Assembly (NCBI GenBank): GCA_964469675.1
Contig: CAYYBV010000001.1
Coordinates: forward strand, 12,909-40,605
Reading direction: 5' to 3'
Length of the DNA: 27,697 bases
Source of the DNA: an uncultured Verrucomicrobiota bacterium
GTDB lineage: Bacteria > Verrucomicrobiota > Kiritimatiellia > JAAZAB01
Shown here: piece after piece, positions 1 through 27,394 of the stretch
Numbering within the stretch: position 1 is the first letter of the stretch
Layout of the letters: every line of letters starts with the position of its first letter
The notes under the pieces: model-generated
Told to the model about the DNA's origin: nothing
The model's input: the letters and a program-made list of their open reading frames with translations, nothing else
Databases searched by the model: none
Made by a program: the position numbers and the translations under genes

Positions 1-1083
1 GAGATCAGGTTTACCCAGCCGCTTTTAAAGGATGGGTGGTTTCGATACAACCGTGGCCCGATTATGATCGCCCAAAATGGCGAGCAGGTCTCCGTCTACC
101 AGTTTAAGTGGAATTTGATCAACCGGTTGGTGGAGGTGCACAGTTATTATTGGGCGTTGGTTCAAACCATTGAGGCCTTGAAGGTGAAGCGGGAGTCGTT
201 CAAGTATGCCCAGGACATGCTGGAAAAAAACCGCAAACAGGTCAAGGCCGGGTTCCTGGCCGAATACGATGTGATCTCGCCGGAAGCCAGTGCCACGGCG
301 CTGAGGGTTGATATTCTTGCCATCGAAAATTCCATTTACCAGTATGAGGATGCGATTAAGAACATCATTTTTAATAAAAACACCGAATTGCGCTCGGATC
401 TGGCGATTGTGCCGGCCGACCGGCCCGAAATGCAAAAAGACGTTAAAGAAATAATGGCCGATCCGGAGACAATCATTGACCTGGCGTTGAAGGCCCGCCC
501 GGATTATCAACTGCGGCAGCTGTCGGTAAAAAACTATGTAACCATGGAATACATGGCGAAAAACCAGCTACTGCCGCAAATCGATTTAACAGCGATCCTC
601 GGGGCGAACACGCTGGAAAACAGTTTCGGCGGCCAGTGGAACGACCTGTACTCACCCGATTCGCGGGATGCGTATGTCGGGCTGACCTTCAGTCTGCCGA
701 TTCAAAATCGGGCGGCCCGGGCCAGGCTCAAAATGGCCCGGATTGAACTTGACCAGGATTTGATTCGGCTGAAACAAAAAGAAAATGAAATTATTAAGGA
801 CGTCCGCAATGCGGTGCGCCAGTTGCAGATTGATTTTCAGCAGCTGCAGGCCAATACTGCCAATGTGGCCGCGAAGGAAAGACTTTTGAAGGCGGAGGAG
901 TTGCGCTTCAGCATTGGGGAGCGCACAAGCTTGGATGTTTTGAACGCCCAAACCGGTCTCTCCAATGCCCGGTTGCAAAGATTAAATGCCCTGGTCAATT
1001 ACAATATGTCAATCGTGAAGCTGGCGCAACAAAAGGGAACGCTTTTGGAGGAAAATGGCATTGAATGGAAAATTACAGAATAG
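1..1083 (+). CDS. TolC-family outer membrane efflux protein (5'-truncated by the window edge)
   Basis: Frame is open from base 1 (EIRFTQPLLKDG...), upstream of the Met at 64. OEP-type motifs FTQPLL, ALKARPDY, KNQLLPQIDL, GLTFSLPIQNRAARA and LRFSIGERTSLDVLNAQ, with two helical repeats. Confidence 0.92.
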   Translation, partial: EIRFTQPLLKDGWFRYNRGPIMIAQNGEQVSVYQFKWNLINRLVEVHSYYWALVQTIEALKVKRESFKYAQDMLEKNRKQVKAGFLAEYDVISPEASATALRVDILAIENSIYQYEDAIKNIIFNKNTELRSDLAIVPADRPEMQKDVKEIMADPETIIDLALKARPDYQLRQLSVKNYVTMEYMAKNQLLPQIDLTAILGANTLENSFGGQWNDLYSPDSRDAYVGLTFSLPIQNRAARARLKMARIELDQDLIRLKQKENEIIKDVRNAVRQLQIDFQQLQANTANVAAKERLLKAEELRFSIGERTSLDVLNAQTGLSNARLQRLNALVNYNMSIVKLAQQKGTLLEENGIEWKITE

Positions 1084-2701
1084 CTGTCGGACAGGATGTT
1101 ATGTGGCGGTCGTCCTGTGTGGTTTGTTTGTGGCGCTGACGCTTCCGCTTGCGGCGGAGATTGAACCGGTCAAGGTGGCAACAAATGTCCCGGCCCCGGC
1201 GGCGCAGCCGGGCGCAACGGGTGACCTGATGACTGCTGCCGTGGATCAGGATGATTATCGCACGTACCTTGACAGTCGCTTGCAGATGAAGAAGGCGCAG
1301 CTGGATCTCTACCAGGCGCAGCTGGAGCAAGCCCAGGCGCAGAGGTTGTTTGACCAAACCACCATGCTTTGCGAGGCGGGTGTTGCCAGCGGCAAAAGCG
1401 TTAACGACGCCAAAAAGAGCCTGGACAACAGCGCCGTGCAGGTCAAAAAAATGGAAATCGCCCTGGACCAGGTCAAGGTGGATATGTTGGACAAGGCCTC
1501 TTCGATTGCCGTGATTGCCGCCAAGAAATACCGGACCACGGATGAAAAAAGGATGGTGGATATCACGCTGCTGAACGATTCGCTGGAAGGCCGGATCAGG
1601 GCCATGTTCAATGATTTGACGCCGGAGCAGTTTAAAACCCTCATGACCATTCATAATATCAGGGTTTCGCTGCGCGAACAGGCCATCATTGCCGAGCCTT
1701 ACGAGCAAACGATTGCCCTGTTGGAGCATGGTGCGCAGACCAATCTCACCTTCCAGCTGCTCAAGGATGCCGACAACCTGGTGGTTGATATTCGCTTTGG
1801 CCAGCGCAATCTTCTGCCGCAGGTGTATCTTAAAAAAGATTCACAGGAAGCTTTCCCCAGTATTGATTCTGCCCAGTTTGCCCAGGAAGGCAGCCTGGGC
1901 GGCAAGGTTAAGTTCGACCTGATGCTTGAAAAGCTGGCGGAGAAAGACGAATCCTTCCGGCTGGTTGCGGTCAATCTGCCCAAGCAGTTTGATTTTTCCA
2001 TGGTTGATCCCAAAACCAGCGCCAAGGTCATGCAGGTAAAGTTTTCGTCCAGCGTTCCCAAGCAGCAGCTGGACCTTGAGATCGCGATCCCGGAAAAACT
2101 CGAGGCGTCCTTTGTTGACCAGACCATTGTGTTCTACGTGATGGCCGTAAGCACCAGCGAACTCAAGACCATCAATGACTTGCGCGAAAAATACAAGGAA
2201 GCGCCGATAGACGATGCCGACATTAAAACCATCAAAGGCAACAAGGTGCGCTTGGAGCTCATCCCGCGCGGCAAGGGCGAACTGGAGATTATCAGCGCCA
2301 ACCGGTACCAGGAAATCAAGGTCGGCGAACAGCCGACCATCCGGGTTGATTTGCATAATGTCGGCACCTTGTCCGTGCTGAATGCCCGGGTTGTGGTGGA
2401 TGCGCCCTATCTGTGGAAGGAGAAAATCGCGCCCAACCTTATTCCGGAGCTTAAGCCGGGCAACAAGGAGCCGGTGTTGGTTACGCTTACACCTCCGGCT
2501 GATATCGGCGTGGGCGAATATGATATCCGCGTGAAGGCCGAAGCCGAAGTCGGCACCGAGAAGATCATGGCCCTGGATAAAAGCATCTCGATTCGCGTCG
2601 GATCAAAAAGCAATGTTATTGGCAACGTTATCCTGATCGGGCTGTTGCTTGCCCTGGTCGGCGGGAGTGCGGTCGCGAGCATTAAAATCAGCAGGAGGTA
2701 A
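1055..2701 (+). CDS. Exported protein: signal peptide, alpha-helical hairpin, beta-rich domains, NEW3 (NPCBM-associated)-like Ig domain and C-terminal TM anchor
   Basis: 548 aa. Hydrophobic N-terminus ending LPLAA. Heptad-rich segment ~1250-1490. NEW3-like pattern (VDLHNVGT..VDAPYLW..IPELKPG..VTLTPPADIGVGEYDIRVKA) ~2290-2600. C-terminal TM (NVILIGLLLALVGGSAVASI) followed by KISRR. Overlaps the tolC end by 29 nt; GGAGG at 1047-1051. Confidence 0.75.
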   Translation: MALNGKLQNSCRTGCYVAVVLCGLFVALTLPLAAEIEPVKVATNVPAPAAQPGATGDLMTAAVDQDDYRTYLDSRLQMKKAQLDLYQAQLEQAQAQRLFDQTTMLCEAGVASGKSVNDAKKSLDNSAVQVKKMEIALDQVKVDMLDKASSIAVIAAKKYRTTDEKRMVDITLLNDSLEGRIRAMFNDLTPEQFKTLMTIHNIRVSLREQAIIAEPYEQTIALLEHGAQTNLTFQLLKDADNLVVDIRFGQRNLLPQVYLKKDSQEAFPSIDSAQFAQEGSLGGKVKFDLMLEKLAEKDESFRLVAVNLPKQFDFSMVDPKTSAKVMQVKFSSSVPKQQLDLEIAIPEKLEASFVDQTIVFYVMAVSTSELKTINDLREKYKEAPIDDADIKTIKGNKVRLELIPRGKGELEIISANRYQEIKVGEQPTIRVDLHNVGTLSVLNARVVVDAPYLWKEKIAPNLIPELKPGNKEPVLVTLTPPADIGVGEYDIRVKAEAEVGTEKIMALDKSISIRVGSKSNVIGNVILIGLLLALVGGSAVASIKISRR

Positions 2702-2707
2702 AGGCCT

Positions 2708-3433
2708 ATGGACAAAGCGGCTGTATTGGAAGCCGTCCAGCTGACCAAGCGCTATGAGAACGGTGTCCTGGCGGTGGACAATCTCAATCTCAACATCAGC
2801 CCGGGCGAGATCTATGTGCTTTTGGGGACCAACGGTGCGGGCAAAACCAGCACCATGATGCTGATGTTCGGCTTTACCGAGCCCACTGCGGGGACCGTCA
2901 GGATTTGCGGCTTTGACATCACGCGCGATCCGCTGGAGGCCAAAAAACACGCGGCCTATGTTTCAGAAAACGTGATGCTCTACGGCAGTTTCACGGCCCT
3001 GCAGAATATCGAGTTTTTTGCCAGGCTCGGCGGTGCCATTCAATCCGACGCCGCAACTTGTGAGCAATTCCTGTTGCGCGTGGGATTGCCCCTGGAAGCG
3101 CACCGCCGCCGCGTGCGCAGTTTTTCCAAGGGCATGCGCCAGCGCCTGGGTATTGCCATTGCCATGATGAAAAATACCGAGGTGATTATTTTGGATGAAC
3201 CCACTTCGGGGCTGGATCCCAAGGGTGGGGCTGATTTCCTGGATATTCTGCGGGAGTTAAAGGCGGAAGGCAAAGCCATTTTTATGTCCAGCCACGACAT
3301 CTTCCGGGCCGAGATCATCGCGGACCGGGTGGGGATCATGAGCCATGGCCGGATTGTCCAGGAGCTGGATCAGGCCGGCCTTGGTAATCAGGACCTTGAA
3401 AAGTTGTATTTACAGTACGAGCTGGAGAAATAG
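2708..3433 (+). CDS. ABC transporter ATP-binding protein (ABC-2/drug-exporter type)
   Basis: Walker A GTNGAGKT, signature FSKGMRQR, Walker B IILDEP, D-loop SGLD, H-loop SSH. SD AGGAGG at ~2692-2697. Confidence 0.96.
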   Translation: MDKAAVLEAVQLTKRYENGVLAVDNLNLNISPGEIYVLLGTNGAGKTSTMMLMFGFTEPTAGTVRICGFDITRDPLEAKKHAAYVSENVMLYGSFTALQNIEFFARLGGAIQSDAATCEQFLLRVGLPLEAHRRRVRSFSKGMRQRLGIAIAMMKNTEVIILDEPTSGLDPKGGADFLDILRELKAEGKAIFMSSHDIFRAEIIADRVGIMSHGRIVQELDQAGLGNQDLEKLYLQYELEK

Positions 3434-3434
3434 G

Positions 3435-4808
3435 ATGTTCGGGTTAATGGTCAAAAAAGAGATCCGCAGCCATGTCCTGACCTACCGGTTTGCGATGACG
3501 CTGGTCCTGTCCTTTGTGCTCATGCTGCTGGGTTTTCATTTGATGACCATGCATTACCAGGGCCGCATGGATGCCTATGCGGCCAGCGCGTCGGTTCGCG
3601 CCGATCAGGTGGCCAAAATCAGGAAAATTCCGGAACCGGAACAGCGTCTCCGCGAGTTGACCAGTCAAGGTGTTAGCTCTGGTTACCGGCCCGCGCTTTT
3701 AAGCATATTGGCGGTCGGGGTTGAAGGCGGTCTGCCGATTGCGCGCCATGCCGGCGGCTGGGGCGCTGACGGGAGCGATACGGACCGGTTTAAAAACCCG
3801 TTCCTCTCGGTGCTGATGGCGCCGGATTTTACCTATATTGTCGCCGTTATCTTGAGCCTGCTGGCCTTGATTTTTTCTTTTGATAATATCTGCGGCGAAA
3901 AAGAGCAGCAGACCTTGAAGTTGACCCTTTCTTATGCGGTGCCGCGCCACCTCGTGTTGCTGTCCAAATGGGTTGGCGGCTACGTGGTGCTGATCTGTCC
4001 GGTGCTCTTGGCCACGGGGGTGGCGCTGTTTATTATGAGTTTGCAAAAACATGTGCAACTGGAGCCGGGCGACCTCGTTCGCATTGCCCTGATGGTTGGG
4101 GCGGCGCTGGTCTACATTTCGCTTTTTTTTACGGTCGGCATCATGATTTCAACCCTGACCCATCGCGCGGTCACAGCCATGATCATTGCGCTGTTTGTCT
4201 GGGCGGCCTGGGTCTTGGTAATCCCGAATATCGCCATTGTGTGCGCCAAGCTGATTGCGCCGGTGCCGACTTATAACAAAATCGAAAATGAAAAAAACGC
4301 AGTGGACGAAGAAATCAACCTGAAAATCAATGCGATCGGCAAAACAATGCTTAATTATGGAAACGCGGCCAAAAAGCTCAAGGAAACATTTGAGCAGGAA
4401 AGGCAGCGGCGCCGGCAGGACCTTGATGAATTTTATGCAAACAAGATTGTTGCCCAGAACCGGCTGTGCACGCTGTTTTCGCGGCTCTCGCCCTTTGCCG
4501 CGTATAGCTATCTCTCGGCGGCGCTGGCCGATACGGGTGTTGATTTATACCGCCAATATTGGGCGGCGGACAAGCGGTTTAAAGATGATTTTGAAAGTTA
4601 TCGGCAGAAGCTTTGGGACGAAAGACGCGCAAACAAACTCAAGGCGGACTGGTTCCGGCCGGATGCGTTGGCGGTCTTTGTCGTCAGTCCAACTAGACTG
4701 GAAGACAGCATCAACCGGGCCGCGTTCGATTTTTCAATCATCGCCGTTCTTAATGTCATCTGCTTTTTAACCGCCTTTATGTGCTTCTTGCGTTATGATG
4801 TGAAGTAA
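3435..4808 (+). CDS. ABC-2 type permease subunit 1 with two large extracytoplasmic loops
   Basis: Start reassigned to ATG 3435, 1 nt after the ATPase stop: MFGLMVKKEIR. Contains FDNICGEKEQQTLKLTLSYAVPR..LLSKW, several TM helices and ends FLRYDVK. Confidence 0.88.
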   Translation: MFGLMVKKEIRSHVLTYRFAMTLVLSFVLMLLGFHLMTMHYQGRMDAYAASASVRADQVAKIRKIPEPEQRLRELTSQGVSSGYRPALLSILAVGVEGGLPIARHAGGWGADGSDTDRFKNPFLSVLMAPDFTYIVAVILSLLALIFSFDNICGEKEQQTLKLTLSYAVPRHLVLLSKWVGGYVVLICPVLLATGVALFIMSLQKHVQLEPGDLVRIALMVGAALVYISLFFTVGIMISTLTHRAVTAMIIALFVWAAWVLVIPNIAIVCAKLIAPVPTYNKIENEKNAVDEEINLKINAIGKTMLNYGNAAKKLKETFEQERQRRRQDLDEFYANKIVAQNRLCTLFSRLSPFAAYSYLSAALADTGVDLYRQYWAADKRFKDDFESYRQKLWDERRANKLKADWFRPDALAVFVVSPTRLEDSINRAAFDFSIIAVLNVICFLTAFMCFLRYDVK

Positions 4809-4819
4809 GGAGTCACGCC

Positions 4820-6247
4820 ATGCTGGCGCTGGTTATTAAAAAAGAAGTTTTGGAAAACCTGTTGAGCCTGCGGTTCAGCCTGGCCTGCCTGTTGTGCTTT
4901 GTGACGCTTGGGCTTGGACTGTGGGTTAACAGCTGGGAATATACTGAGAACCTGGCGGACTTGCGGGCAAATGCGGCCATGCATCGCCAGGAGGTGGAGC
5001 GCTATAATGACTCCTATATGATTTTATGGCGGGGCGTCAAGGTGGATTTGCCGCTCAATATCATGCAAATTTTCGTGTCGCGCCGGGCCGATGAAGGGTT
5101 GCGCACGATTCAAATCGCGCCATATTTGGAGCCTTTGTCGGTTGCGAGCCCAAAACTGACACCACTTGCGCACATGTTTCCGCGCACCGACCTGATTTTT
5201 TTCATTGGCGTTGTGATGAGTTTGCTGGCGCTGGTCTTCAGCTACGAGGCGGTGAGCGGTGAAAAAGAGCAGGGCACGCTCCGGCTCATGCTTTCCTACA
5301 GCATTCCGCGGGACACATACTTGCTGGGCAAATGGATCGGCGGCTTTGTCAGTCTGGTTCTACCGCTGGTGGTGGGCTTGATTTGCGCCGTGATGATTAC
5401 CCTCATTTTCCGGGATGTGCATTATACCCCGGCCAACTGGGCGCAGTTGCTGTTAATGTTTTTTGTCTCCATGCTTTACCTGTCCGCGATTTACTCGCTG
5501 GGCCTGTTTGTTTCAGCCCGCACCGCGCGCCCGGCTACCAGCGCGGTGGCCGTGCTTTTGGTGTGGGTAATCCTGGTCCTGGCCTGGCCGGCCGTGACGC
5601 CCTACCTGGCCACGCAGTTTGGCCGGACATCATCGCTGGTTGACCTTGAGAAAAGCAAGCGCGATGTGACCAATCTGGCCTGGGAACAGATGCAAACGGT
5701 GAGCAAGGCATATGATAAGTCGCACGGTATCCCGGAAAAATGGTGGGAAAACGGTATTGCCTGGGATAGTGAAATAATATTGCGCAAATGGATGGATATG
5801 AACGATGTGCAATTAAAAACCAGCAGGTTTATGACGCAGGAACAGGAGAAGTTGGATAATAATTTCTTGAACGCAATCAACCGCCAGACATTGATGGGGC
5901 AACATGTGTCCCGCCTGTCGCCTTTTTCGTCCTTCATGTATGTTTTGCTGGCGGCGGGCGGGGAAGACGCCGGGAATGAACGCGTGCTTCGCAAGCAGCT
6001 GATTGAGTATAAAGGGCGGATCGCTGATTACGGCTTTAAGAAAGAGGGTGAGCAGTTAGAAGCGCAGCTTAAAGGCGAAAAAAACCCGAAATATTCCTGT
6101 TCGGATTATCCGCGCTTTCAGATGCCGGTTATGACCATGCCGCATTTGCTGGGTGGCGTGGTCCTGGATGTGGCGTTGCTGTTGATCTGGAATGCGGTTT
6201 TTTTCATGGGGGCCTATATGTCGTTTCTCAGGTATGATGCGAGGTAG
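4820..6247 (+). CDS. ABC-2 type permease subunit 2 (paralogue of subunit 1)
   Basis: SD AAGGAG. MLALVIKKEV start, YEAVSGEKEQGTLRLMLSYSIPR..LLGKW, RLSPF and FLRYDAR end all match subunit 1. Confidence 0.88.
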   Translation: MLALVIKKEVLENLLSLRFSLACLLCFVTLGLGLWVNSWEYTENLADLRANAAMHRQEVERYNDSYMILWRGVKVDLPLNIMQIFVSRRADEGLRTIQIAPYLEPLSVASPKLTPLAHMFPRTDLIFFIGVVMSLLALVFSYEAVSGEKEQGTLRLMLSYSIPRDTYLLGKWIGGFVSLVLPLVVGLICAVMITLIFRDVHYTPANWAQLLLMFFVSMLYLSAIYSLGLFVSARTARPATSAVAVLLVWVILVLAWPAVTPYLATQFGRTSSLVDLEKSKRDVTNLAWEQMQTVSKAYDKSHGIPEKWWENGIAWDSEIILRKWMDMNDVQLKTSRFMTQEQEKLDNNFLNAINRQTLMGQHVSRLSPFSSFMYVLLAAGGEDAGNERVLRKQLIEYKGRIADYGFKKEGEQLEAQLKGEKNPKYSCSDYPRFQMPVMTMPHLLGGVVLDVALLLIWNAVFFMGAYMSFLRYDAR

Positions 6248-6248
6248 C

Positions 6249-7613
6249 ATGATGAAAAAAATGAAGTCTGATTTTCTGGTATTTTGCCTGGCAGGTTGCG
6301 CGTTGGTCCTGGCGGGGTGCGGCAACCGGGTGGAAAGCAATGTCCGCAAGCTGAGCGGCAATGCCGATGAGCGCAAAACGGCGATGATCGAATTGGCCAT
6401 GGTTAAGGATTTTGATGTCGCCGCCATGATCCAGGCGGCCAAAAACAAGCGCTTGCCTGTTGCCGCGCGCATGGATCTGATTACGGTGCTTGCGCGCCTG
6501 TTTTTGCGGGGCGGCCAGATGGAAATTGGCCAAGCATTGAATACCCTGGCCAATGATCCGGCGCCGGACGTCCGCAAGGCGGCTATCCGGGCATTGGGCG
6601 ATTTACATAATGCGGAAGGTGTCGAGCCCATGTTGGCCGCGCTTAAGGACCCTGACCCGGAGTTGCAGAAAGAGGTTCTGCTGGCCCTTGAGAAAAAAAA
6701 CACTGCCGATTTCAGGCTGGTCCTTATGAAGGATGTTCAAGAAATTTATGCCAAGACAAAAAATGACGCCAAGCAGGCCGAACTTAATGCCCTGGCCTTG
6801 AAACTGCTGGAAGACAATGCGAATAAGCTTGCGCAACAGGCGAACCAGCTGGCCTTGCGCGGGCAGCTTCGGGAGGCGGAGGCGAGCCTGGCGGGCGTCC
6901 TGGCCCTGGTGCCCGACAGCATTAATATAAACTACAAGCTGGGCCGTTTTTATTATGACAATGGTCAAAAGGACAAGGGGCTGGCCCTGCTCGAAAAGTA
7001 TGGCCTACTGGTGCGCGTTAAAAAGTTTGCCGCCGCCCCGCTGCTGGATGGCGGCCTTTCCGACCCATGCTGGGAACATGCGGTCCGGATCACTAATTTT
7101 TATCAATGCGTCTATACCTCACTGACTAAAAAAATATCCGGCAGAAGCGAGGTTCGCATGGGTTATACCACCACGGATTTCTATATTGCTTACAAGGCGT
7201 GGGAGCCTTCAACCAAAGGCATTAAATGTGCAGCCAAACTCAGGGACGCCGATGTCTGGGCTGATGACTGCGTTGAAATCTTTTTTGATCCCCGGCGCGA
7301 TCATAAAAAGTTTTACCAGGTTGTGGTTAATGGCCTGGGCACAATCTTTGATGTGCGTTGCGCGGGTGCCGGAGAAGACAAATCCTGGAACCCCAAAATC
7401 GAAGCCTGCCCGAAAGTGCAGCCGGATGCCTGGACCGCGGAAATAAAAATACCGCTTGCCGATCTGGAGATGGCTGACATTGTTCCGGGCACAATTTTCG
7501 GGTTTAATGTCGCCACAGTTCGAATTGGCAATGCCTCCGAATACGGGCAGTGGGCGCCCACATATGGCAGCTCGCGCCGGCCGGAACAATTCGGGTTTTT
7601 GCTGTTTGAATAA
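6249..7613 (+). CDS. Predicted lipoprotein: HEAT/PBS-lyase repeats + TPR-like helices + CBM9-like (DOMON-type sugar-binding) C-terminal domain
   Basis: Start reassigned to 6249, 1 nt after the permease stop. Lipobox LAGC. HEAT motifs (LANDPAPDVRKAAIRALG; ALKDPDPELQKEVLLAL), TPR-like NYKLGRFYYDNG, CBM9-like APLLDG..D..W, DDCVEIFFDP, WTAEIKIPLADL, GFNV, PEQFG. Confidence 0.75.
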   Translation: MMKKMKSDFLVFCLAGCALVLAGCGNRVESNVRKLSGNADERKTAMIELAMVKDFDVAAMIQAAKNKRLPVAARMDLITVLARLFLRGGQMEIGQALNTLANDPAPDVRKAAIRALGDLHNAEGVEPMLAALKDPDPELQKEVLLALEKKNTADFRLVLMKDVQEIYAKTKNDAKQAELNALALKLLEDNANKLAQQANQLALRGQLREAEASLAGVLALVPDSININYKLGRFYYDNGQKDKGLALLEKYGLLVRVKKFAAAPLLDGGLSDPCWEHAVRITNFYQCVYTSLTKKISGRSEVRMGYTTTDFYIAYKAWEPSTKGIKCAAKLRDADVWADDCVEIFFDPRRDHKKFYQVVVNGLGTIFDVRCAGAGEDKSWNPKIEACPKVQPDAWTAEIKIPLADLEMADIVPGTIFGFNVATVRIGNASEYGQWAPTYGSSRRPEQFGFLLFE

Positions 7614-7635
7614 TATTCGTCAATTCGGATAAAAT
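7606..7635 (+). promoter_or_regulatory. Candidate sigma70 promoter for cobS-btuF-btuC
   Basis: TTGAAT (7606-7611), 18 nt spacer, TAAAAT (7630-7635). By-eye match only. Confidence 0.4.
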
Positions 7636-7667
7636 CTCAAATCATTTGCGGGAGAGATTGTAAAATA

Positions 7668-8423
7668 ATGGTGTTTTCCGGCTTCATCACCGCAATGCGG
7701 ACATTGACCATCCTGCCCATGCCCGGCAAGGATGCGGCGCGAATGGCCGATGCCCTGTATTATTTCCCGCTGGTGGGCGCGCTCGTCGGCGGGTTGGTGA
7801 CTCTGGCGGTCTGGCTGCTGGGCGGCGTGCTGACCTGGCCCGTGGGCGCCGGCGTGGCCGGTGTATTGCTTTCCGCCTGGTTCACCCGCGGCCTGCACTT
7901 GGACGGCTTAAGCGACACGGTCGATGGTTTTTATGGGGCCTTTAGCAGTGAACGGCGGCTGGAAATAATGAAAGATCACCACGTCGGCGCGTTCGGCGTC
8001 GTGGCTGTCGTTATCGTGTTGTTGATGAAATCGGTGGCGTTTACCCAGCTGGCGATCGGCGGCCAATGGGTCTGGATCCCGGTCCCATTCATTCTCGCGC
8101 GCCTGGTACAGGTTTTGCTGGCCATGACACTGCCCTATGCCCGCCACGAGGGCGGCAAGGCGGAAGCATTTGTAAGGCAGGCGGACAAAACTCATTTTAT
8201 TGTTGCCGGCATCCTGGCCTTGGTCCTGTGCGGATTGCTGGTGCAACTCAGCGCGCTGGTATTGTTTGTGGTCACGTTAATTATCGGCTATTTATCTGCC
8301 CAGTGGATGAAACGCGCCTTTGGCGGTGTTACCGGCGATCTGCTGGGGTTTGCCAATGAGCTGGTCGAGTGCGCGCTCCTTTTCGCAATTGCCGCGGGCA
8401 GGCCTTATCTGGGAAACGGATGA
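7668..8423 (+). CDS. cobS: Adenosylcobinamide-GDP ribazoletransferase (cobalamin synthase)
   Basis: Motifs YFPLVG, TRGLHLDGLSDTVDG, LEIMKD..VGAFGV and FGGVTGDLLG in a polytopic membrane protein. Confidence 0.96.
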   Translation: MVFSGFITAMRTLTILPMPGKDAARMADALYYFPLVGALVGGLVTLAVWLLGGVLTWPVGAGVAGVLLSAWFTRGLHLDGLSDTVDGFYGAFSSERRLEIMKDHHVGAFGVVAVVIVLLMKSVAFTQLAIGGQWVWIPVPFILARLVQVLLAMTLPYARHEGGKAEAFVRQADKTHFIVAGILALVLCGLLVQLSALVLFVVTLIIGYLSAQWMKRAFGGVTGDLLGFANELVECALLFAIAAGRPYLGNG

Positions 8424-9379
8424 AATCAGCCATCGCCTTTTTAGCGCTCTGTGTCTTGCTGTCGGCCGGCTGCGCGCCGCGCCAGCCGGACCCGGCGCCG
8501 GATGCGATAAGGATTGTTTCGTTGGCGCCTAACCTGACCGAAATGGTCTGTGCCGTCGGCGCGGGTGCCGCGCTGGTGGGCCGGACCAGCGCCTGCGACT
8601 ATCCGCCGGAAATCATCAAATCCGTGCCTGTGATCGGCGGATTCGGCGCGCCCTCGCTGGACCGGCTCCTGGCCACCCGTCCAACCCTGATCCTGGATGT
8701 AGACTTGGAAGACGAAACAACGGCCAGCCTGATGATGCAAACGGGTGTCCGGCGCGTACGGGTGCCTTGTGCGACGCTCGACGAGATTCCCGCGGCCATA
8801 ATTACGGTCGGGCGCCTGGCAAATTGCGCGGCCGCCCAGCCATTGGCCGAGCGCATTCGCCGCGCGGTTTTGGAACGGCGCAATGCGGTCAAAGTTTATC
8901 AAGCATCCGGGCAAACCGTGCCTACGGTTTTCGCCGAAATCTGGGGCGACCCGCTGATGACGGTGGGCCGCAACTCTTTTGTTTCCGAACTGATTGCGCT
9001 GGCCGGCGGCAGGAATCTGGGTGATGAGGTAACCGACAAGGATTATTTTCCTGTTTCCAGCGAATGGGTCATCGCGCGTAATCCGGACATTATTCTGTGT
9101 TTGTATATGACCAAGGCCGGCGGTGGACAAGCGCCAGGCGACGAACGGGGGCTAAACGCCGGCAAAAAAGCAACAACCGAAAATCGAAAGTCCAATACCG
9201 GCGTGCGGCTGTCCGGACGGCCAGGCTGGGCGCAGATCAAGGCCGTCCGTGACAATCGCGTATACGGCGGGTTTGACAATAATCTTATTCTCCGTCCCGG
9301 CCCGCGTGTTTTGGAAGGCATCGCGGCATTGCAAACATGTTTTCAAAATGGCGTGCATCCGGGTGCAGATCATCCCTGA
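8420..9379 (+). CDS. btuF: Cobalamin/cobinamide-binding lipoprotein (BtuF-like)
   Basis: ATGA overlap with the cobS stop. Lipobox SAGC. RIVSLAPNLTEMVCAVG, GRTSACDYP, EWVIARNPDIIL, RPGW..IKAVRDNRVY, LRPGPR. B12 specificity inferred from the cobS context. Confidence 0.85.
   Translation: MKSAIAFLALCVLLSAGCAPRQPDPAPDAIRIVSLAPNLTEMVCAVGAGAALVGRTSACDYPPEIIKSVPVIGGFGAPSLDRLLATRPTLILDVDLEDETTASLMMQTGVRRVRVPCATLDEIPAAIITVGRLANCAAAQPLAERIRRAVLERRNAVKVYQASGQTVPTVFAEIWGDPLMTVGRNSFVSELIALAGGRNLGDEVTDKDYFPVSSEWVIARNPDIILCLYMTKAGGGQAPGDERGLNAGKKATTENRKSNTGVRLSGRPGWAQIKAVRDNRVYGGFDNNLILRPGPRVLEGIAALQTCFQNGVHPGADHP
9171..9198 (+). repeat. Degenerate heptamer tandem array inside btuF
   Basis: caacaac-cgaaaat-cgaaagt-ccaatac, encoding part of ATTENRKSNT. 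Confidence 0.5.
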
Positions 9380-9461
9380 ACAAGGTCATTGGTTGATGCG
9401 TCGGTTGCTTGCGAACAGGCTTGGGTGGCGGGTCGCGCTGCATTAGCGTTAATTGGTTGCC

Positions 9462-10427
9462 ATGAGAAAAAAAGCCATTTGGATATTGCTCGTCATCACG
9501 CCGCTGGCCATGGGCGCATGCCTGTTTGTGGGCGCCGCCAACCTGGCCACGCATGATTGGGCGACGCCCCTGGGGCGCGCTATTCTAGGCTTGCGCGCCA
9601 GCCGGATTGCGGCCGGGTTTGTGGTCGGCGGAGCGCTGGCCGGCGCGGGCGTCGTGCTCCAGGCGCTCCTGCGCAACCCGCTGGCGGAGCCCTATGTGTT
9701 GGGCGTCAGCGGTGGGTCTGCCCTGGGCGTCGCCGTGGCGATTTTTTTGGGCGCCGTCGGTGTGTTTACGCTTTCTTTCAGTGCTTTTACCGCCGGTGTC
9801 CTGGCGCTGGCCGTCGTCTATCTGCTGGCATACCATAGTGGTGCGCCCTCGCTTTATGCGCTATTGTTAAGCGGGGTCATCATTAGCGCCATCTGTTCCA
9901 GCCTGCTGATGCTGATCATTTCAATTGCGCCGGCGGAGGGCTTGCACAGCATCACCTGGTGGATGCTGGGCAATTTACAGGTGACGTCCCTGCCGCTTCT
10001 GCTGTTCAGCGCCGCATTGATTCTGGCCGCGTTTATCGGCATATGGCTCATGGCGCGCGAATTGAATGCCCTGACCCTCGGCCAGGAGATGGCCTATCAT
10101 TTGGGCGTACGCACGCGCCTGGTCGTTACCATGGGGCTGGGCCTGGCCACGCTCATGACCGCCGCGGCCGTTGCCGTGGCCGGGCTCATTGGATTTGTCG
10201 GCCTTATCGTTCCGCACGTCATGCGCAGTATCGTTGGCCCCGATCATCGGCGGCTCATCCCGGCGGCAACGCTTGCCGGCGGGCTGTTTTTGACGCTGTG
10301 CGACACGCTGGCCCGCACGGTTGCCGCGCCAATTGAAATTCCGGTAGGGGTTATCACGGCGCTGGTGGGCGGGCCTTTTTTCCTTGTGCTCCTGCGCCGC
10401 CGCCGCCATGGGGCGTGGGGCGAATAA
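9462..10427 (+). CDS. btuC: FecCD/BtuC-family ABC permease
   Basis: LRASRI..G..VGGALAGAGVVLQALLRNPLAEPYVLGVSGG, LNALTLG...A..LG, GLIGFVGLIVPH, EIPVGVITALVGGPFF. Confidence 0.92.
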   Translation: MRKKAIWILLVITPLAMGACLFVGAANLATHDWATPLGRAILGLRASRIAAGFVVGGALAGAGVVLQALLRNPLAEPYVLGVSGGSALGVAVAIFLGAVGVFTLSFSAFTAGVLALAVVYLLAYHSGAPSLYALLLSGVIISAICSSLLMLIISIAPAEGLHSITWWMLGNLQVTSLPLLLFSAALILAAFIGIWLMARELNALTLGQEMAYHLGVRTRLVVTMGLGLATLMTAAAVAVAGLIGFVGLIVPHVMRSIVGPDHRRLIPAATLAGGLFLTLCDTLARTVAAPIEIPVGVITALVGGPFFLVLLRRRRHGAWGE

Positions 10428-10451
10428 TCCCGGTGTGTTTCTTCGGCGCGC

Positions 10452-10480
10452 TTGACCGCAAAACTGTTGATCAATACATT
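10452..10480 (+). promoter_or_regulatory. Candidate sigma70 promoter of the BspA-like gene
   Basis: TTGACC (10452-10457), 17 nt spacer, TACATT (10475-10480). SD AGGAGA at 10590-10595. Confidence 0.6.
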
Positions 10481-10598
10481 ACAAATATATTGCAAATTTG
10501 AATTCGGTATTTTACCATTGTGAAAAGCAATTAACTTTTTACGCCGAATAAATATTTGTGCACGTAACCAGCGGGCAGCCGTTAAAACCAGGAGAACC

Positions 10599-12383
10599 AT
10601 GAAAAGATCAATGCTGGCGATGCTTGTATTGCTGACAATCACGATGACGGTAAAGGCGGATGTTTCCGGTGATTATGTCTACACGGTAAATCCCAATGGC
10701 ACGGTCCGAATTGACGAATACACCGGATCTGACATTTTGGTTACTGTTCCAAATATCATCAGTGGCAGGACGGTGGTCGGCATCGGACGCTATGCCTTCG
10801 CCGACAATGACATCATGACCAGCGTCACGATCCCCGACAGCGTTCTCTACCTCGAAGACTATGTTTTCGATGATTGCTCCAATCTATCAAGCGTTACGAT
10901 CGGCACCGGCGTTGCCAGCATTGGTTTTCGGGTGTTCGATGATTGTCCCAACTTGACGATCATCAACGTTACCGCGGGGAACACTTCCTACAGCAGTTCG
11001 GATAATGTTTTGTTCAACAACGGCCAGACCGCGCTCATTCAATGCCCGGGTGGCAGGGCCGGAAGCTACACGATCCCGGATGGCGTCACCAGTGTCGAGC
11101 GCGGGGCGTTCTTTTGGTGCACTCGCCTGGAAGGCGTCACGATTGCTTCCACCGTCACTAACATAGCCGCAGAGGCGTTCTGGAGTTGCACCAGCCTGGG
11201 AGGCATCGTGATCCCCAACGGCGTGACCAGCATCGGGGATAATGCCTTCTGGGGCTGCACCAACATGGCCAGCGCCACGATTGGCGCCAGTGTTGCCAAC
11301 ATCGGGGAATTTGCGTTCTATGAATGCGCCCGTCTGACCGAAGTCAGTCTTCCCGCCAGTGTCACCAACATCGGGTACGCGGCTTTTGTCCGCTGCGCCA
11401 GCCTGGCGGCCATCACGGTGGACGGGGGCAACCCTGCCTACAGCAGTAGTGGTAATGGTCTTTTGTTCAATAAAAACAAGACGACGCTCATCCAATGCCC
11501 GGGTGCCAAAAGCATTGTCACGATCCCCGCCGGTGTCGGCAGCATTGGGCGCGGGGCGTTCTACTGGTGTGCTAGATTGGATAGCATCCCGATCCCCGAC
11601 AGCGTCACCAACATCGGGAACAGCAGTTTTGCCTTTTGCACCAACCTGACCACCATCACGATGCCTAACAGTGTCGCCGATATTGGGTATTACGCGTTTG
11701 AAAACTGCTCCCGCCTGGATAGTATTACGATCCCCGACAACGTCACCAGCCTCAAATACTGGGCGTTCATCAGTTGCAGCAGCCTGCGCACCGCCACGAT
11801 TGCCGCCAACGTCACCAACATCGATGACGATGTCTTTGCTTCCTGTACCAACCTGGCCGGCGTCTATTTCCGGGGCAACGCTCCCGGCGGCAGTACGAAC
11901 ATTTTCTACAATGACGAAAATGTGACCGTCTATTACTTGGCCGGGGCCACGGGATGGGGCGCGACGTTTAGCGGCCGCCCAACCGCGCTATGGAATAACG
12001 CTTCGCCGGAACCAAGGATCAGGGCTAACGGCGCGGTTGGCACGGTAACCGTTAATTATCCCGAAACCGTGTCCATCACCGTGAGTTTGAATGCGGGGTC
12101 TTATGCGGGCGTTCCGGTCGATTGGTGGGTCGTTGCCCAGTCGGGATCGGCATGGTTCTATCGTGATAGCGTGAAGGGCTGGACGGAAGAAAGCAATTTG
12201 CATAATTGGCGCCCAGCTTATCAGGCGGGCTTGTTCAATCTTTCGACTTTTGAAGTCCTGCGCATCGCGGGTTTATCGCGGGGCGCGTATAAATTATATT
12301 TTGCGGTCGATTATCCGATGGATGGGGTTTTAAACCTGGATGGCATTATTTTTATGGACACGGTTGATCTCATCGTGCAGTAG
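10599..12383 (+). CDS. Secreted BspA/TpLRR-type leucine-rich-repeat protein with an uncharacterised ~125-aa C-terminal domain
   Basis: Signal peptide ending TVKA. N-cap YTVNPNGTVRIDEYTG. Many 23-aa repeats (SVTIPDSVTxIGxxAFxxCxxL). Two (Y)SSxxxxLFNxxxTxLIQCPG inserts. C-cap YFRGNAP..VYYLAGATGW. Confidence 0.92.
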   Translation: MKRSMLAMLVLLTITMTVKADVSGDYVYTVNPNGTVRIDEYTGSDILVTVPNIISGRTVVGIGRYAFADNDIMTSVTIPDSVLYLEDYVFDDCSNLSSVTIGTGVASIGFRVFDDCPNLTIINVTAGNTSYSSSDNVLFNNGQTALIQCPGGRAGSYTIPDGVTSVERGAFFWCTRLEGVTIASTVTNIAAEAFWSCTSLGGIVIPNGVTSIGDNAFWGCTNMASATIGASVANIGEFAFYECARLTEVSLPASVTNIGYAAFVRCASLAAITVDGGNPAYSSSGNGLLFNKNKTTLIQCPGAKSIVTIPAGVGSIGRGAFYWCARLDSIPIPDSVTNIGNSSFAFCTNLTTITMPNSVADIGYYAFENCSRLDSITIPDNVTSLKYWAFISCSSLRTATIAANVTNIDDDVFASCTNLAGVYFRGNAPGGSTNIFYNDENVTVYYLAGATGWGATFSGRPTALWNNASPEPRIRANGAVGTVTVNYPETVSITVSLNAGSYAGVPVDWWVVAQSGSAWFYRDSVKGWTEESNLHNWRPAYQAGLFNLSTFEVLRIAGLSRGAYKLYFAVDYPMDGVLNLDGIIFMDTVDLIVQ

Positions 12384-12413
12384 CAATTATAATAGCGTGA
12401 TTAGTGTGTGCAG

Positions 12414-12450
12414 AAAGGGGTTTTGACTTTACCGGTCAGCACCCCTTTTT
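12414..12450. terminator. Rho-independent terminator, probably bidirectional
   Basis: aaaggggttttgac-tttaccg-gtcagcaccccttttt: ~14-bp stem with one mismatch and one G-T pair, flanked by A and T tracts, 30 nt after the BspA stop. Confidence 0.75.
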
Positions 12451-12502
12451 GTTGCCGCCGGTAGTCCCCGGGTTGATTCGAGCGACCAGAATCAATATCC
12501 CT

Positions 12503-12531
12503 TTGTCTTCCCTCTGCCGAACTGGTATCTT
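12503..12531 (+). promoter_or_regulatory. Candidate promoter for btuD
   Basis: TTGTCT (12503-12508), 17 nt spacer, TATCTT (12526-12531), with extended-10 TG at 12523-12524. Confidence 0.5.
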
Positions 12532-12573
12532 CACGGGCATAACAACCGGTTGCCTTGTGAACCCCTGACAAGC

Positions 12574-13827
12574 ATGAATGCCGCATTTAGTTTTGAGCAT
12601 CTTTCGGCCGGGTATGCCGCGCGGACCGTATTAAACAATGTCAATTTTACGGTCGCGGAAGGCGAGATGGTGGCGCTGTTGGGGCCCAACGGCGCCGGTA
12701 AATCCACGCTCCTGCGGGTGCTGACCGGCCTGCACCCGGCAAGCGCCGGCAATGTCCGGCTGTTTGGCCAGGATGTGCGCCGCTTGCGGGCGCTGGATCG
12801 TTCACGCCTGATCGCCGTGGTGCCCCAAGAACTCACAACGCCCATGGCTTATACTGTGGAAGAACTGGTGCTCATGGGCCGCGCCGCCCTGTTGAGCCCG
12901 TGGCAGGCGCCCACTGCCGCGGATCGCCTGGTTGTCGAACGCGCCATGGTTTACACCGACGTCAGCGAACTGCGTGATCGCCCGCTGGTGGCCCTCAGCG
13001 GCGGCGAGAAACAACGCGCCGTGATCGCCATGGCCTTGGCCCAGGAACCCCGCGTGATCGTCATGGACGAACCGACCACCCACCTCGACCTGAATCATTC
13101 GTTGGAAATCATGCAGATCATCGAGCGCCTGAACCGTAACCAGCGTGTTACGGTCATGATGACCAGCCATGATTTAAACCTTGCTGCCGAATTCTGCCAA
13201 CGCCTGATCCTGTTGGATCATGGCGCGCTGGTCGCCGATGGCACGCCTTCCGAGGTTCTGCGTGAAAATGTTTTGCGCGATGTGTATCATTGCGATATCC
13301 GGGTTGGGCAGGAACCGCATACCGGCGCGGTACTCGTCCTGCCGGCGCGGCGGCTGGCCGGGCCCCGGGTCGGGCAACACCTGCGCGTGCACGTCGTTGC
13401 CGGCGGCGGGTGTGCCGGCGAACTGCTGCGCCGGTTGAGCCTGGCAGGGTACCGGGTTAGTTGTGGCGTGCTTAACCAGCAGGATACGGATGCGCAGGTG
13501 GCGGAAGCGCTGGGTGTTGACATCGTGCTTGAAAAGCCGTTTTCACCAATTGGCCCAGCGGCGCTGGAGCAAGCCAAAATCATGGCGGCGGATGCCGCCG
13601 TTGTGATTATTTGCGAGGTGCCGTTTGGCCCCGGGAATGTGGTTAACCTGGAGCTTGCCGACCAAGCCTTGCAGCGCGGCGGGCGCGTGTTGATCAACGA
13701 TCACCACCTGGCCAACCGGGATTACAGTCCTGACTGTCAGGCGCGCGCCTGGATCCGGCGGCTGATGGAGGCGGGCGCCACGCCCTGGCACCAGATAAAT
13801 CAGGTCTTGGGCGCCCTAACCCCTTGA
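12574..13827 (+). CDS. btuD: BtuD/FecE-type ABC ATP-binding protein with a ~160-aa C-terminal extension
   Basis: GPNGAGKST, LSGGEKQR, VMDEPTTHLD, TSHDLNLAAEFC, GTPSEVL. The extra domain begins near RVHVVAGGGC. Start at ATG 12574 preferred over TTG 12550. Confidence 0.88.
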   Translation: MNAAFSFEHLSAGYAARTVLNNVNFTVAEGEMVALLGPNGAGKSTLLRVLTGLHPASAGNVRLFGQDVRRLRALDRSRLIAVVPQELTTPMAYTVEELVLMGRAALLSPWQAPTAADRLVVERAMVYTDVSELRDRPLVALSGGEKQRAVIAMALAQEPRVIVMDEPTTHLDLNHSLEIMQIIERLNRNQRVTVMMTSHDLNLAAEFCQRLILLDHGALVADGTPSEVLRENVLRDVYHCDIRVGQEPHTGAVLVLPARRLAGPRVGQHLRVHVVAGGGCAGELLRRLSLAGYRVSCGVLNQQDTDAQVAEALGVDIVLEKPFSPIGPAALEQAKIMAADAAVVIICEVPFGPGNVVNLELADQALQRGGRVLINDHHLANRDYSPDCQARAWIRRLMEAGATPWHQINQVLGALTP

Positions 13828-14911: not shown

Positions 14912-15412
14912 TTAGCGCCCCACATGCTTCCCGGCCGACTCCATGATCAATATCGCCCGGCCCCAACCATCTGCCTTGCGGGACGATGCCAGCGTGCATT
15001 CCACGAGCCGCCAGGGCGGACGTTGCATTGCGGCTATCTGCAGGAAGCCGGGCAATTGGTCAAATTCCACGTCGCTGAAGACAACTTCCATTTGCCAAAG
15101 CGTCCAGCCGGCTGCAAGGTTGCGCGTTTCGCGTTCCCGAATTTCCGGCGTTGTGTTGGTTAAGATAGCCCGGCCCATGCTCGCCAATGAGACGGGCTGC
15201 GCGTTGCTCAGCCCCTCAAAGACGCGCAAGGCCGCCTGGTGGCGGGCGCGCGTCTGTTGCATTACCTTCAGTTGGTCAAGGGTTTCAATTTTACTGCGGA
15301 GCTTGCCGCGCAGTTCCAGGTTCTGGCGCAACGTGGTAACGGCCCCCAGCACCCCGGCCATAAATACCGCCAGCGCGCAGACCTGCAGAATAATCAATGT
15401 TTTCGGCTTCAT
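14912..15412 (-). CDS. GspM/PilO-like inner-membrane platform protein
   Basis: N-terminal TM, coiled coil, then a ferredoxin-like pattern (EVVFSDVEFDQLPGFL). ATGA-coupled to the gspL-like gene. Identity rests largely on synteny. Confidence 0.55.
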   Translation of the reverse strand: MKPKTLIILQVCALAVFMAGVLGAVTTLRQNLELRGKLRSKIETLDQLKVMQQTRARHQAALRVFEGLSNAQPVSLASMGRAILTNTTPEIRERETRNLAAGWTLWQMEVVFSDVEFDQLPGFLQIAAMQRPPWRLVECTLASSRKADGWGRAILIMESAGKHVGR

Positions 15413-17798: not shown

Positions 17799-17804
17799 GT
17801 CATT

Positions 17805-17833
17805 ATTATTACCAGATGTGGCGGGAAAGTCAA
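17805..17833 (-). promoter_or_regulatory. Candidate promoter for gspK-L-M, positioned for a leaderless transcript
   Basis: Minus strand: TTGACT (17833-17828), 16-17 nt spacer, TG-g-TAATAAT, then 6 nt to ATG 17798. Confidence 0.5.
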
Positions 17834-17853
17834 ATGGAGCGGGCAGGCATCCA

Positions 17854-21447: not shown

Positions 21448-21846
21448 TTATTGCCCTTGCACTTCAAACGCCACCGACGGTACCCCGGCGGTCCGGAGCC
21501 GCGAAAGCAGTTCAATCCCAATGCCAAGCTCCGCCTGGCGGTCGCCGCGGATAAGCACGGTGCCGGGCGCGCTCCGTATCCGTTCCGCCACGCGCTGGAC
21601 ACAGTCATTCATGTTGTAAGTTGTCCCGTCCAAGGCGAGTGTGTTTTTGGCGTCCAGCACGATTCGCACTACTTTTTTCGGCTGCGTTTCGCCGGTTGCC
21701 GCCGGAAGCGTGATGCGCACGCCCTGGTTCACCGACATGGAAATAATCGCGTAGATGAAAAACACAAGCAGCAGGAAAACCACATCCAGCAGGGGCACAA
21801 GCTCGATCCGCGCCTTCTTATACTCGTAGCCGGTTGTTAGGCGCAT
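21448..21846 (-). CDS. exbD: Biopolymer transporter ExbD
   Basis: Start reassigned to 21846. IELVPLLDVVFLLLVFF, ITLP.A, VLIRGD. Confidence 0.93.
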   Translation of the reverse strand: MRLTTGYEYKKARIELVPLLDVVFLLLVFFIYAIISMSVNQGVRITLPAATGETQPKKVVRIVLDAKNTLALDGTTYNMNDCVQRVAERIRSAPGTVLIRGDRQAELGIGIELLSRLRTAGVPSVAFEVQGQ

Positions 21847-27311: not shown

Positions 27312-27384
<73 letters not shown>

Positions 27385-27394
27385 CTCCCTTTTC

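Follow-up and report, generated by a model that had tools for sequence, protein, structure and literature searches.

A TolC-like outer-membrane factor, a hairpin-bearing NEW3 protein and a NosY-like ABC-2 transporter in one conserved gene set: a candidate envelope-spanning machine with a chimeric adaptor

The first 7613 positions of a 27,697-nucleotide stretch of DNA from an uncultured Verrucomicrobiota bacterium (contig CAYYBV010000001.1; the whole stretch is called the window here) are occupied by six open reading frames (ORFs) on the + strand, separated by gaps of −29, 6, 1, 11 and 1 nt. They encode, in this order, a TolC-family outer-membrane factor (family OEP, by which name the gene is also called here), a 548-aa protein with a NEW3 domain, an ATP-binding cassette (ABC) ATPase, two ABC-2 permeases and a lipoprotein (Table 1). 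A Shine-Dalgarno-like element (GGAGG, AAGGAG or GAGG) lies ahead of each start in the operon, and these elements, the tight gaps and the Pfam scores above gathering thresholds confirm the six-gene composition that had been proposed in an earlier reading of the letters, hereafter the sequence-only reading. The window copy of tolC aligns with profile positions 94–406 of the 414 positions of TIGR01844 (type_I_sec_TolC), at a score under the cut-off. A 93%-identical relative that carries the same six genes on a 423-kb scaffold (locus L001) has a full-length tolC, which contains an assembly gap and opens with the signal peptide MNKAFLGLILALAVAAG. The public gene call starts the 548-aa protein at GTG 1103, 16 codons later (532 aa), whereas a start at ATG 1055 is preceded by GGAGGA, a stronger ribosome-binding site than that of 1103, and produces an overlap of 29 nt with the tolC stop. 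At the borders of the operon, neither promoter nor terminator scans rose above background. DNA near-identical to positions 1–9500 of the window recurs in many metagenomes of wastewater, sludge and landfills from 2018 to 2025, and the organism is thus a repeat member of wastewater communities.

The 548-aa protein is the component on which the interpretation of the operon turns. Its AlphaFold2 (AF2) model, built on 33 homologues and with a mean predicted local distance difference test score (pLDDT) of 80, gives the order signal peptide, disordered linker rich in proline and alanine, alpha-helical hairpin, three consecutive immunoglobulin (Ig)-like beta-sandwiches and C-terminal transmembrane (TM) helix, and together with hydropathy it bears out the ‘inverted topology’ of signal peptide, hairpin, NEW3 domain and C-terminal TM helix that had been read from the sequence. 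The signal peptide ends at LAA↓E, there is one further hydrophobic segment, near the C-terminus, and in many homologues the first helix follows directly after the signal peptide; the N-terminus would therefore be free, and the protein would be anchored by its C-terminus alone. By residue count, the hairpin is about 70 Å long. A Pfam NEW3 match is present in each of the 33 family members, and Pfam detected neither a HlyD nor a BSH domain in any of these. All 33 aligned homologues, which come from several phyla, end in the same Ser-Arg-Arg (SRR) sequence, and this invariance points to a specific contact on the cytoplasmic side. A Foldseek comparison of the model with the PDB returned generic tandem Ig arrays of the integrin-leg, alpha-2-macroglobulin and CEP192 types and no membrane-fusion protein (MFP), with template modelling (TM) scores below 0.3 that are uninformative on function; the Ig-like stalk is thus not that of an MFP.

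The hairpin is a different matter, as it resembles the hairpins of MFP adaptors. Residues 62–144 of the window protein align with profile positions 56–132 of the model TIGR01730 (RND_mfp) with an E value of 0.0045, at 16 bits against a curated cut-off of 94.9 and hence below family level. Sub-threshold NCBIfam matches of this kind run through the family: 15 of the 33 members match RND_mfp and nine match TIGR00999 (CzcB/NccB; best E 4e-7), and the models for MdtN, EmrA, HlyD, MdtA and MexA are also found. When the family profile was compared with PDB sequences, three of the four matches in the hairpin region were MexJ, ZneB and a MexA fusion, the first two of them weak. In the tip motif R-x3-L-x6-S, the leucine and the serine or threonine are in register with MexJ, again in a weak match, and the arginine is not conserved. 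Members from Aminicenantes and Zixibacteria have both hairpin arms shortened jointly, by 12 and 7 residues, which is what would be expected for a hairpin. Room for a signal peptide plus hairpin, taken as at least 80 residues before the first Ig-like domain, exists in 172 of 176 full-length members, and three clearly lack it. A more fitting description of the 548-aa protein is that of a chimera, in which an MFP-type hairpin is combined with an Ig-like stalk.

The transporter itself consists of an ATPase and two paralogous permeases. The best NCBIfam matches of the ATPase, a protein of the DrrA/GldA/NosF type, are drrA, GldA and NodI, all of them under the equivalog cut-offs, and as the operon encodes one nucleotide-binding subunit, the ATPase is presumably a homodimer. 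Both permeases score well above the gathering score of 27.2 bits of PF12679 (ABC2_membrane_2), and hydropathy gives each of them six hydrophobic segments with loops of about 80 aa after TM1 and of about 150 aa before TM6 (aa 40–118 and 266–436 in permease B). The AF2 model of permease A (pLDDT 82.8, predicted TM-score 0.76) agrees with the two large loops that the sequence-only reading had noticed: TM1 runs to residue 63, and the helices 280–304, 310–349, 353–364 and 369–398 form a helical addition outside the membrane. Judging by the N-in topology, the loops would lie on the periplasmic side. The best Foldseek matches of permease A are the NosY chains of NosDFY(L) (7o0y, 7o12, 7qba; E 1e-5 to 1e-4), with TM-scores of 0.63–0.79 when normalised to the NosY target, and ABCG25 is the next match. 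Source annotations assign the permease homologues to the ‘multi-copper enzyme maturation’ permease family, COG1277. The engine would thus be a heterodimer of the type V (ABC-2) class, served by a single sort of ATPase subunit.

The family of the NEW3 protein is small but widespread. It gave 71 word-index matches, and a HMMER search of 1.84 billion representatives gave 442 clusters (50% identity) at E≤1e-3, 127 of which also reach E≤1e-30. A scan with one genome per species yielded 39 loci, mostly from Latescibacterota (some of them labelled Gemmatimonadetes), also from Planctomycetota, and one from Omnitrophota. ORFs were called in all loci, and the six window proteins served as queries against them, together with an iterated profile of OEP. 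Among the 44 loci that were fetched from Latescibacterota, Planctomycetota, Omnitrophota, Poribacteria-like and Aminicenantes assemblies, an OEP gene adjoins the homologous NEW3 gene in 40; three exceptions end at a contig edge (L010, L042, L044), and in the fourth (L040) an unassigned ORF, read in the opposite direction, lies next upstream. The OEP also lies beside NEW3 in L046 and L049. Most loci also have the ATPase and two PF12679 permeases. The co-occurrence of tolC, NEW3 and ABC-2 genes does recur across phyla, and it does so in rearranged orders.

At least seven such orders were seen. The window lineage, L036 and L043 have OEP-NEW3-ATPase-permease-permease, with or without a lipoprotein gene at the end; L039 and L049 have NEW3-OEP-ATPase-permease-permease, again with the lipoprotein as an optional last gene; and in most Latescibacterota permease-permease-(lipoprotein)-ATPase is divergent from OEP-NEW3-NEW3. 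The remaining orders are OEP-NEW3-NEW3-lipoprotein-permease-permease-lipoprotein-ATPase (L027), ATPase-lipoprotein-permease-permease-OEP-NEW3-NEW3 (L034), permease-permease-x-ATPase-NEW3-OEP (L005, where NEW3 has 756 aa and extra sandwiches), and ATPase-permease divergent from OEP-NEW3 (L046). The window TolC is 30% identical to the OEP of L036, and BLASTP found no similarity between it and the OEPs of L003 and L039 (E 10 and 0.02), loci whose NEW3 genes are 40–50% identical. The OEPs form several subfamilies between which BLASTP sees no link, and they are not all recognisable as orthologues. A position of the OEP that is kept through rearrangement, and even through an apparent replacement of the OEP, is strong evidence of a functional link.

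Several loci show variants of this gene set. In Latescibacterota (L003, 8478–11542, and most of L006–L038), two tandem hairpin/NEW3 paralogues of about 500 aa each follow the OEP, which suggests a hetero-oligomeric adaptor ring, and a conserved protein of 264 aa, in which a UVR motif is weakly matched, comes after them. In the Poribacteria-like locus L005 (1–8332 and 13793–16813), five ABC-2 permease genes surround a single ATPase gene, a single NEW3 gene and a single OEP gene; its NEW3 protein has two extra beta-sandwiches, and genes for an extracytoplasmic function (ECF) sigma factor and a Peptidase_M61 protein are near. In the Omnitrophota-type variant, the OEP follows NEW3 rather than preceding it (L039, 9911–12561; L049, 1078–3754), and this OEP has no BLASTP similarity to the window TolC, although among the named relatives the remaining genes of the variant, including NEW3 at 50% identity, are the closest.

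A canonical adaptor was sought in the neighbourhood. As exact-sequence look-ups of the 548-aa and 532-aa products gave no match, the upstream region was read from L001, where the place directly upstream of tolC, at which a HlyD-family adaptor had been thought possible, is taken by cobT (DBI_PRT, 7217–8281), with unrelated genes for a GDSL/FG-GAP protein, UvrD, BrkB, a NUDIX protein and Wzt still further upstream. No HlyD-family adaptor is encoded within 10 kb upstream of tolC in L001, and no member of an adaptor family was found by Pfam among the window ORFs scanned, those downstream of the operon included. We also scanned 134 neighbouring ORFs of 250–560 aa, located within 4.5 kb of the clusters at 37 loci, with Pfam. 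The 25 most frequent of the resulting 96 families, each with at least two members, include no canonical adaptor; synteny markers such as DapA, DapB and the UVR-motif protein (14 of the 134 ORFs) are seen instead. The earlier statement that the operon lacks a HlyD/MFP adaptor therefore holds for the upstream region in L001, but it needs amending for the 548-aa protein, whose hairpin is itself MFP-like and suggests adaptor ancestry. Of the three findings that the sequence-only reading had named as grounds for refutation, two, an adaptor gene directly upstream of tolC and a lack of conserved co-occurrence, were looked for and came out in favour of that reading.

The lipoprotein that closes the operon has the lipobox VLAGC and was rightly recognised as having a sugar-binding-like fold, namely a CBM9-like domain, but it is more than that, as it also contains HEAT and TPR repeats. 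Its family is small, with 21 full-length matches. All homologues match the window protein over nearly the full length and have a lipobox that is followed by the conserved acidic motif C-G-x-S-[IV]-E-[DE]-S-I-[DE]-K-L. The gene adjoins the permeases in L001, L039, the P0005 locus, L006, L024, L027, L031, L034 and the P0318 locus, it stands alone once, and it is missing from many loci, which makes the lipoprotein an optional partner. By analogy with NosL, we propose that it would present substrate. The sequence-only reading had suggested glycans or surface-protein release as the function of the system; nothing beyond the CBM9-like domain of this optional protein speaks for either, and a link to glycans, to which that domain is the sole pointer, is a guess. 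Two loci contain arrays of six to eight lipoprotein paralogues and an extra copy of permease A beside the system (L006, 11528–20019; L031, 11606–21423). In the same two loci, a CBM9/HEAT protein encoded on the − strand between the ATPase and permease A (L006, 4557–6023; L031, 4550–6016) starts with IIRKEIVNNILSFRF, which is similar to the KEI...RF motif conserved at the N-terminus of the permeases and is followed by a hydrophobic segment and a cysteine; either a hybrid N-terminus or a start called in the wrong place could explain this.

The best reading of these findings is, in our opinion, a TolC-dependent ABC-2 machine that spans the envelope and employs a new, chimeric adaptor. This reading rests on computation, and we hold it with moderate confidence; the physical contacts, the stoichiometry, the direction of transport and the substrate are parts of it that we infer. 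In such a machine, a homodimeric ATPase would drive a heterodimer of NosY-like (type V) permeases, each with a helical periplasmic turret, and the 548-aa protein would stand in for the membrane-fusion protein. After cleavage of its signal peptide, its C-terminal helix would hold it in the inner membrane, with the SRR tail free to contact the transporter; the three Ig-like domains would rise from the membrane, and the hairpin at the far end would dock tip-to-tip on the periplasmic end of a TolC-like trimer. The HEAT/TPR/CBM9 lipoprotein would be an optional periplasmic partner that presents or holds the substrate, much as NosL does for NosDFY, and ATP hydrolysis would expel the substrate via TolC, with the periplasm, the outer leaflet or the cytoplasm as its source. 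A NosY-like permease core would fit this scheme, by analogy with the NosFY machine, which works on periplasmic partners.

A more far-reaching version of this idea can be put forward tentatively. The family with signal peptide, hairpin, three Ig-like domains and TM helix might be a second, structurally independent class of adaptors that couples NosY-type ABC-2 engines to TolC ducts in the Fibrobacteres–Chlorobi–Bacteroidetes (FCB) and Planctomycetes–Verrucomicrobia–Chlamydiae (PVC) groups and in candidate phyla; the paralogues of Latescibacterota would then form a mixed ring, and the lipoprotein arrays would supply interchangeable substrate presenters for export from the periplasm to the outside.

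Several points weigh against the TolC-dependent machine. Every match of the hairpin to an MFP model lies under the curated cut-off, and coiled coils are prone to draw spurious matches. The Omnitrophota-type proteins of L039 (427 aa) and L049 (426 aa) have no hairpin, their signal peptide leads straight into the first Ig-like domain, and they still have an OEP as the next gene; the hairpin is therefore usual but not indispensable for the link to the OEP. The contacts of the hairpin with TolC and of the TM helix with the permeases are themselves part of the proposal, and a canonical adaptor may be encoded elsewhere in the genome. Most loci come from Latescibacterota with a common synteny (dapA, dapB, purH), so that they represent about 7–9 independent arrangements and not 40. 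Two loci have OEP-NEW3-NEW3 without permeases within reach (L020, L026), and the P0005 locus, L045 and L047 have no adjacent OEP, the P0005 locus and L045 being NEW3 plus ABC. Finally, the coverage in one metatranscriptome amounts to a few contigs of 151 nt, which lie in the NEW3 gene or, in one case, span its junction with the ATPase gene; this is too thin as proof of co-transcription, and a carry-over of DNA is possible.

The strongest competitor, which we regard as unlikely, is a mechanotransducer of the NosDFY type, in which the transporter would do work in the periplasm, such as the loading, maturing or releasing of the CBM9/HEAT lipoprotein or another envelope component, and in which the TolC-like protein and the Ig-like stalk would serve as a tether or scaffold at the outer membrane. 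Seen from the permease, this has some appeal, as the NosY of NosDFY(L) is the closest solved structure and the annotation refers to the maturation of multi-copper enzymes; the lipoprotein of the operon would parallel NosL, arrays of six to eight of its paralogues flank the system in L006 and L031, and the hairpin-less variant implies that docking need not be MFP-like. Yet the lipoprotein is missing from many loci and the OEP from very few, no homologue of NosD, NosZ or NosL was detected among the window ORFs scanned, and an MFP-type hairpin is known solely from adaptors that form ducts.

Somewhat less likely again is an ordinary tripartite ABC-2 pump of the YbhGFSR or HP1486-HP1489 type whose MFP is encoded elsewhere, with the 548-aa protein as an auxiliary component like GldG for GldAF. 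The genome is a fragmentary metagenome-assembled genome (the contig has 40.6 kb), which leaves distant genes out of sight, carrier genomes do hold unrelated resistance-nodulation-division (RND) systems with canonical adaptors, and the weak GldA and GldF matches of ATPase and permeases would suit an auxiliary role. However, it would be unusual for an adaptor gene to lie apart from its OEP gene as well as from the genes of its transporter, and it is the NEW3 gene to which the OEP is tied in nearly every locus and arrangement; the NEW3 protein itself bears an MFP-type hairpin, and MFPs are absent from the most frequent neighbour families.

It is improbable that the gene set consists of two modules without a physical bridge, an outer-envelope structure of OEP and NEW3 protein and an unrelated ABC-2 exporter that travels along. 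The divergent transcription in Latescibacterota could be taken in this way, and in L020, L026 and L045 just one of the modules is seen within 10 kb, but the two have stayed together through many rearrangements and across phyla, they form a single operon in the window lineage, L036, L043, L027, L034, L039 and L049, and the NEW3 protein is predicted to have its anchor in the inner membrane and a tail of invariant sequence in the cytoplasm. A role in corrinoid (cobalamin) traffic, for which one could cite the position of the cluster between cobT (DBI_PRT) and cobS-btuF-btuC (CobS, Peripla_BP_2 and FecCD follow it in L001 and L002 as in the window) and the fact that CBM9-like domains belong to the DOMON-like fold group, whose members are able to bind tetrapyrroles, is highly improbable, since the cob/btu flanks are confined to the window lineage, the neighbours at the other loci are unrelated, and Rfam found no cobalamin riboswitch in the window or L001.

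In the window lineage, the six-gene cluster sits inside an operon for cobalamin salvage and uptake, with cobT upstream in L001 and L002, a lineage-specific context. As Rfam detected no RNA of any kind close to the cluster, riboswitches included, regulation of the operon by cobalamin was dropped as an explanation. Further along the window, genes for ExbB, ExbD and TonB lie beside plsY and gpsA, from which it follows that the organism has TonB-dependent outer-membrane transport. A 400-aa protein has a type II secretion system (T2SS) pseudopilin K first domain; it is followed, likewise on the − strand, by a 465-aa ORF without a Pfam match, and a TPR protein is encoded on the strand opposite to it. 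At the far end, a 1441-aa ORF fuses an alpha-amylase catalytic domain to the N- and C-terminal domains of a glycogen debranching enzyme; with the start listed for it, it overlaps the exbB ORF, and a tRNA gene follows it.

Table 1. Features of the window, the operon first and its surroundings after it (bits, Pfam scores; positions refer to the window)
Feature	Position	Strand	Evidence or remark
TolC-family outer-membrane factor (OEP), 3' 360 codons	1–1083	+	PF02321, 119 bits, two stretches; 5' end beyond the window
548-aa adaptor-like protein	1055–2701	+	signal peptide, alpha-hairpin, three Ig-like sandwiches, C-terminal TM, SRR end
Alpha-helical hairpin, aa 60–148 (helices 60–107, 113–148)	1232–1498	+	AF2, pLDDT 81–93
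Two Ig-like beta-sandwich domains, aa 151–258 and 269–390	1505–2224	+	AF2
Third sandwich, NEW3/NPCBM_assoc (CARDB-like), aa 396–516	2240–2602	+	PF10633, 47.4 bits vs cut-off 24.4; CARDB, E 2e-4
C-terminal TM helix, aa 521–547 (hydrophobic aa 517–546)	2615–2695	+	hydropathy 2.5; AF2; kept in 33/33 homologues
SRR end (S546-R547-R548)	2690–2701	+	
ABC ATPase, 241 aa	2708–3433	+	PF00005 ABC_tran, 104 bits
ABC-2 permease A, 457 aa	3435–4808	+	PF12679, 109.1 bits; PF12040 (DUF3526), 32.9 bits
ABC-2 permease B, 475 aa (same topology as its paralogue A)	4820–6247	+	PF12679, 116.4 bits
Lipoprotein, 454 aa	6249–7613	+	HEAT_2, 41 bits; TPR_19, 25.9; CBM9_1 (PF06452), 34.8 vs cut-off 23.4; CBM9_2, 25.7 vs 25
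Downstream run (cobS and the four genes below)	7668–13827		
BtuF-like binding protein	8369–9379		Peripla_BP_2
FecCD permease	9453–10427		
BspA-type LRR_5 protein	10599–12383		
ABC ATPase, 425 aa	12550–13827		
465-aa ORF	15409–16806		no Pfam match
400-aa protein	16806–18008	−	T2SS pseudopilin K first domain
TPR protein	17785–18960	+	
gpsA	18964–19959		
plsY	19966–20607		
TonB	20724–21350	−	
ExbD	21448–21936	−	
ExbB	~21818–22981	−	
1441-aa ORF	22755–27080	+	alpha-amylase catalytic domain; glycogen debranching enzyme N- and C-terminal domains
tRNA-Lys (CTT)	27312–27385		

To our knowledge, every characterised TolC-dependent pump, whether of the RND, major facilitator superfamily (MFS), ABC or type I secretion system (T1SS) kind, uses an MFP with one conserved domain plan. 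The literature that we searched contains no description of a system composed of TolC, a NEW3/Ig-like adaptor and an ABC-2 transporter, nor does the accessible part of a 2021 Chem Rev review have a relevant passage. This agrees with the earlier impression that no system of this composition has been characterised, and it is not proof of novelty. Public annotation names members of the family ‘NEW3 domain-containing’ or ‘hypothetical’. If the proposed machine is real, the role of an adaptor can be built a second way, TolC coupling extends to NosY-type ABC-2 engines, the variants without a hairpin or with two paralogues amount to a natural experiment on the adaptor parts that duct opening requires, and a plausible role is at hand for about 440 clusters of proteins (50% identity) in Latescibacterota, Planctomycetota, Omnitrophota, Poribacteria-like bacteria, Aminicenantes and Zixibacteria.

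Among the known systems, MacAB-TolC is similar in its combination of an ABC transporter with a TolC-family duct, in the sizeable periplasmic domains of the transporter and in a hairpin of comparable length that is expected to dock tip-to-tip; a substrate uptake from the periplasm is plausible as well. MacB, however, has a four-TM type VII fold with a fused ATPase, whereas the permeases of the window have six TM segments and a NosY-like type V fold and are encoded apart from the ATPase, and MacA is an N-terminally anchored MFP with lipoyl, beta-barrel and membrane-proximal domains in place of three linear Ig-like sandwiches and a C-terminal anchor. YbhGFSR of Escherichia coli and HP1486-HP1489 of Helicobacter pylori are ABC-2 tripartite systems (PMC7190983, PMC9570263), in which an ABC-2 permease pair and an ATPase are likewise genetically linked to an adaptor, and in H. 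pylori also to a TolC-like protein. Their adaptors (YbhG, HP1488) are, unlike the 548-aa protein, canonical members of the HlyD family, their permeases belong to other ABC-2 subfamilies without DUF3526-type additions, and they have neither a NEW3 protein nor a lipoprotein partner. NosDFYL, which delivers copper to N2O reductase (7o0y, 7znq), shares PF12679/COG1277 permeases, a separate ATPase, a periplasmic partner and a lipoprotein with the window system, but NosY is a homodimer of about 270 aa per subunit without periplasmic helices, its partner is the beta-helix protein NosD, and an outer-membrane factor is absent. Membership of NosDFYL was rejected, as no NosD, NosL or nosZ domains were present among the window ORFs scanned.

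The 548-aa protein itself resembles the MFPs AcrA, MexJ, CzcB/ZneB, EmrA and HlyD in the sequence of the hairpin, where the L-x6-S/T spacing of the tip motif is apparently kept, and in the location of the gene between outer-membrane factor and transporter. It differs from them in that lipoyl, beta-barrel and membrane-proximal domains are missing, in that its chain does not run out and back, and in being anchored at the opposite end; it does not pass as a canonical member of the MFP family, as it has neither their domain plan nor their N-terminal TM or lipid anchor and scores under the cut-off. GldAFG, which also combines ABC-2 components with a large membrane-anchored periplasmic auxiliary protein and to which the window proteins have weak GldA and GldF matches, was rejected too (GldA, 144 bits against 402.6; GldF, 18–21 against 288.5; no GldG/ABC_transp_aux domain), and it has, unlike the window system, no dedicated OEP. 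Type I secretion of the HlyB/HlyD/TolC kind does not apply either, with ABC-2 permeases, a separate ATPase and no HlyD in the operon, and with a TIGR03375 match of 98 bits against 693 that reflects the ATPase fold only. A canonical tripartite ABC pump comes closest: its outer-membrane factor is present (PF02321), and its HlyD/MFP adaptor was not found in the regions scanned. In conclusion, the window system would work most like a tripartite ABC pump, and it departs from these pumps in the adaptor, as a chimeric protein would take the place of the canonical MFP.

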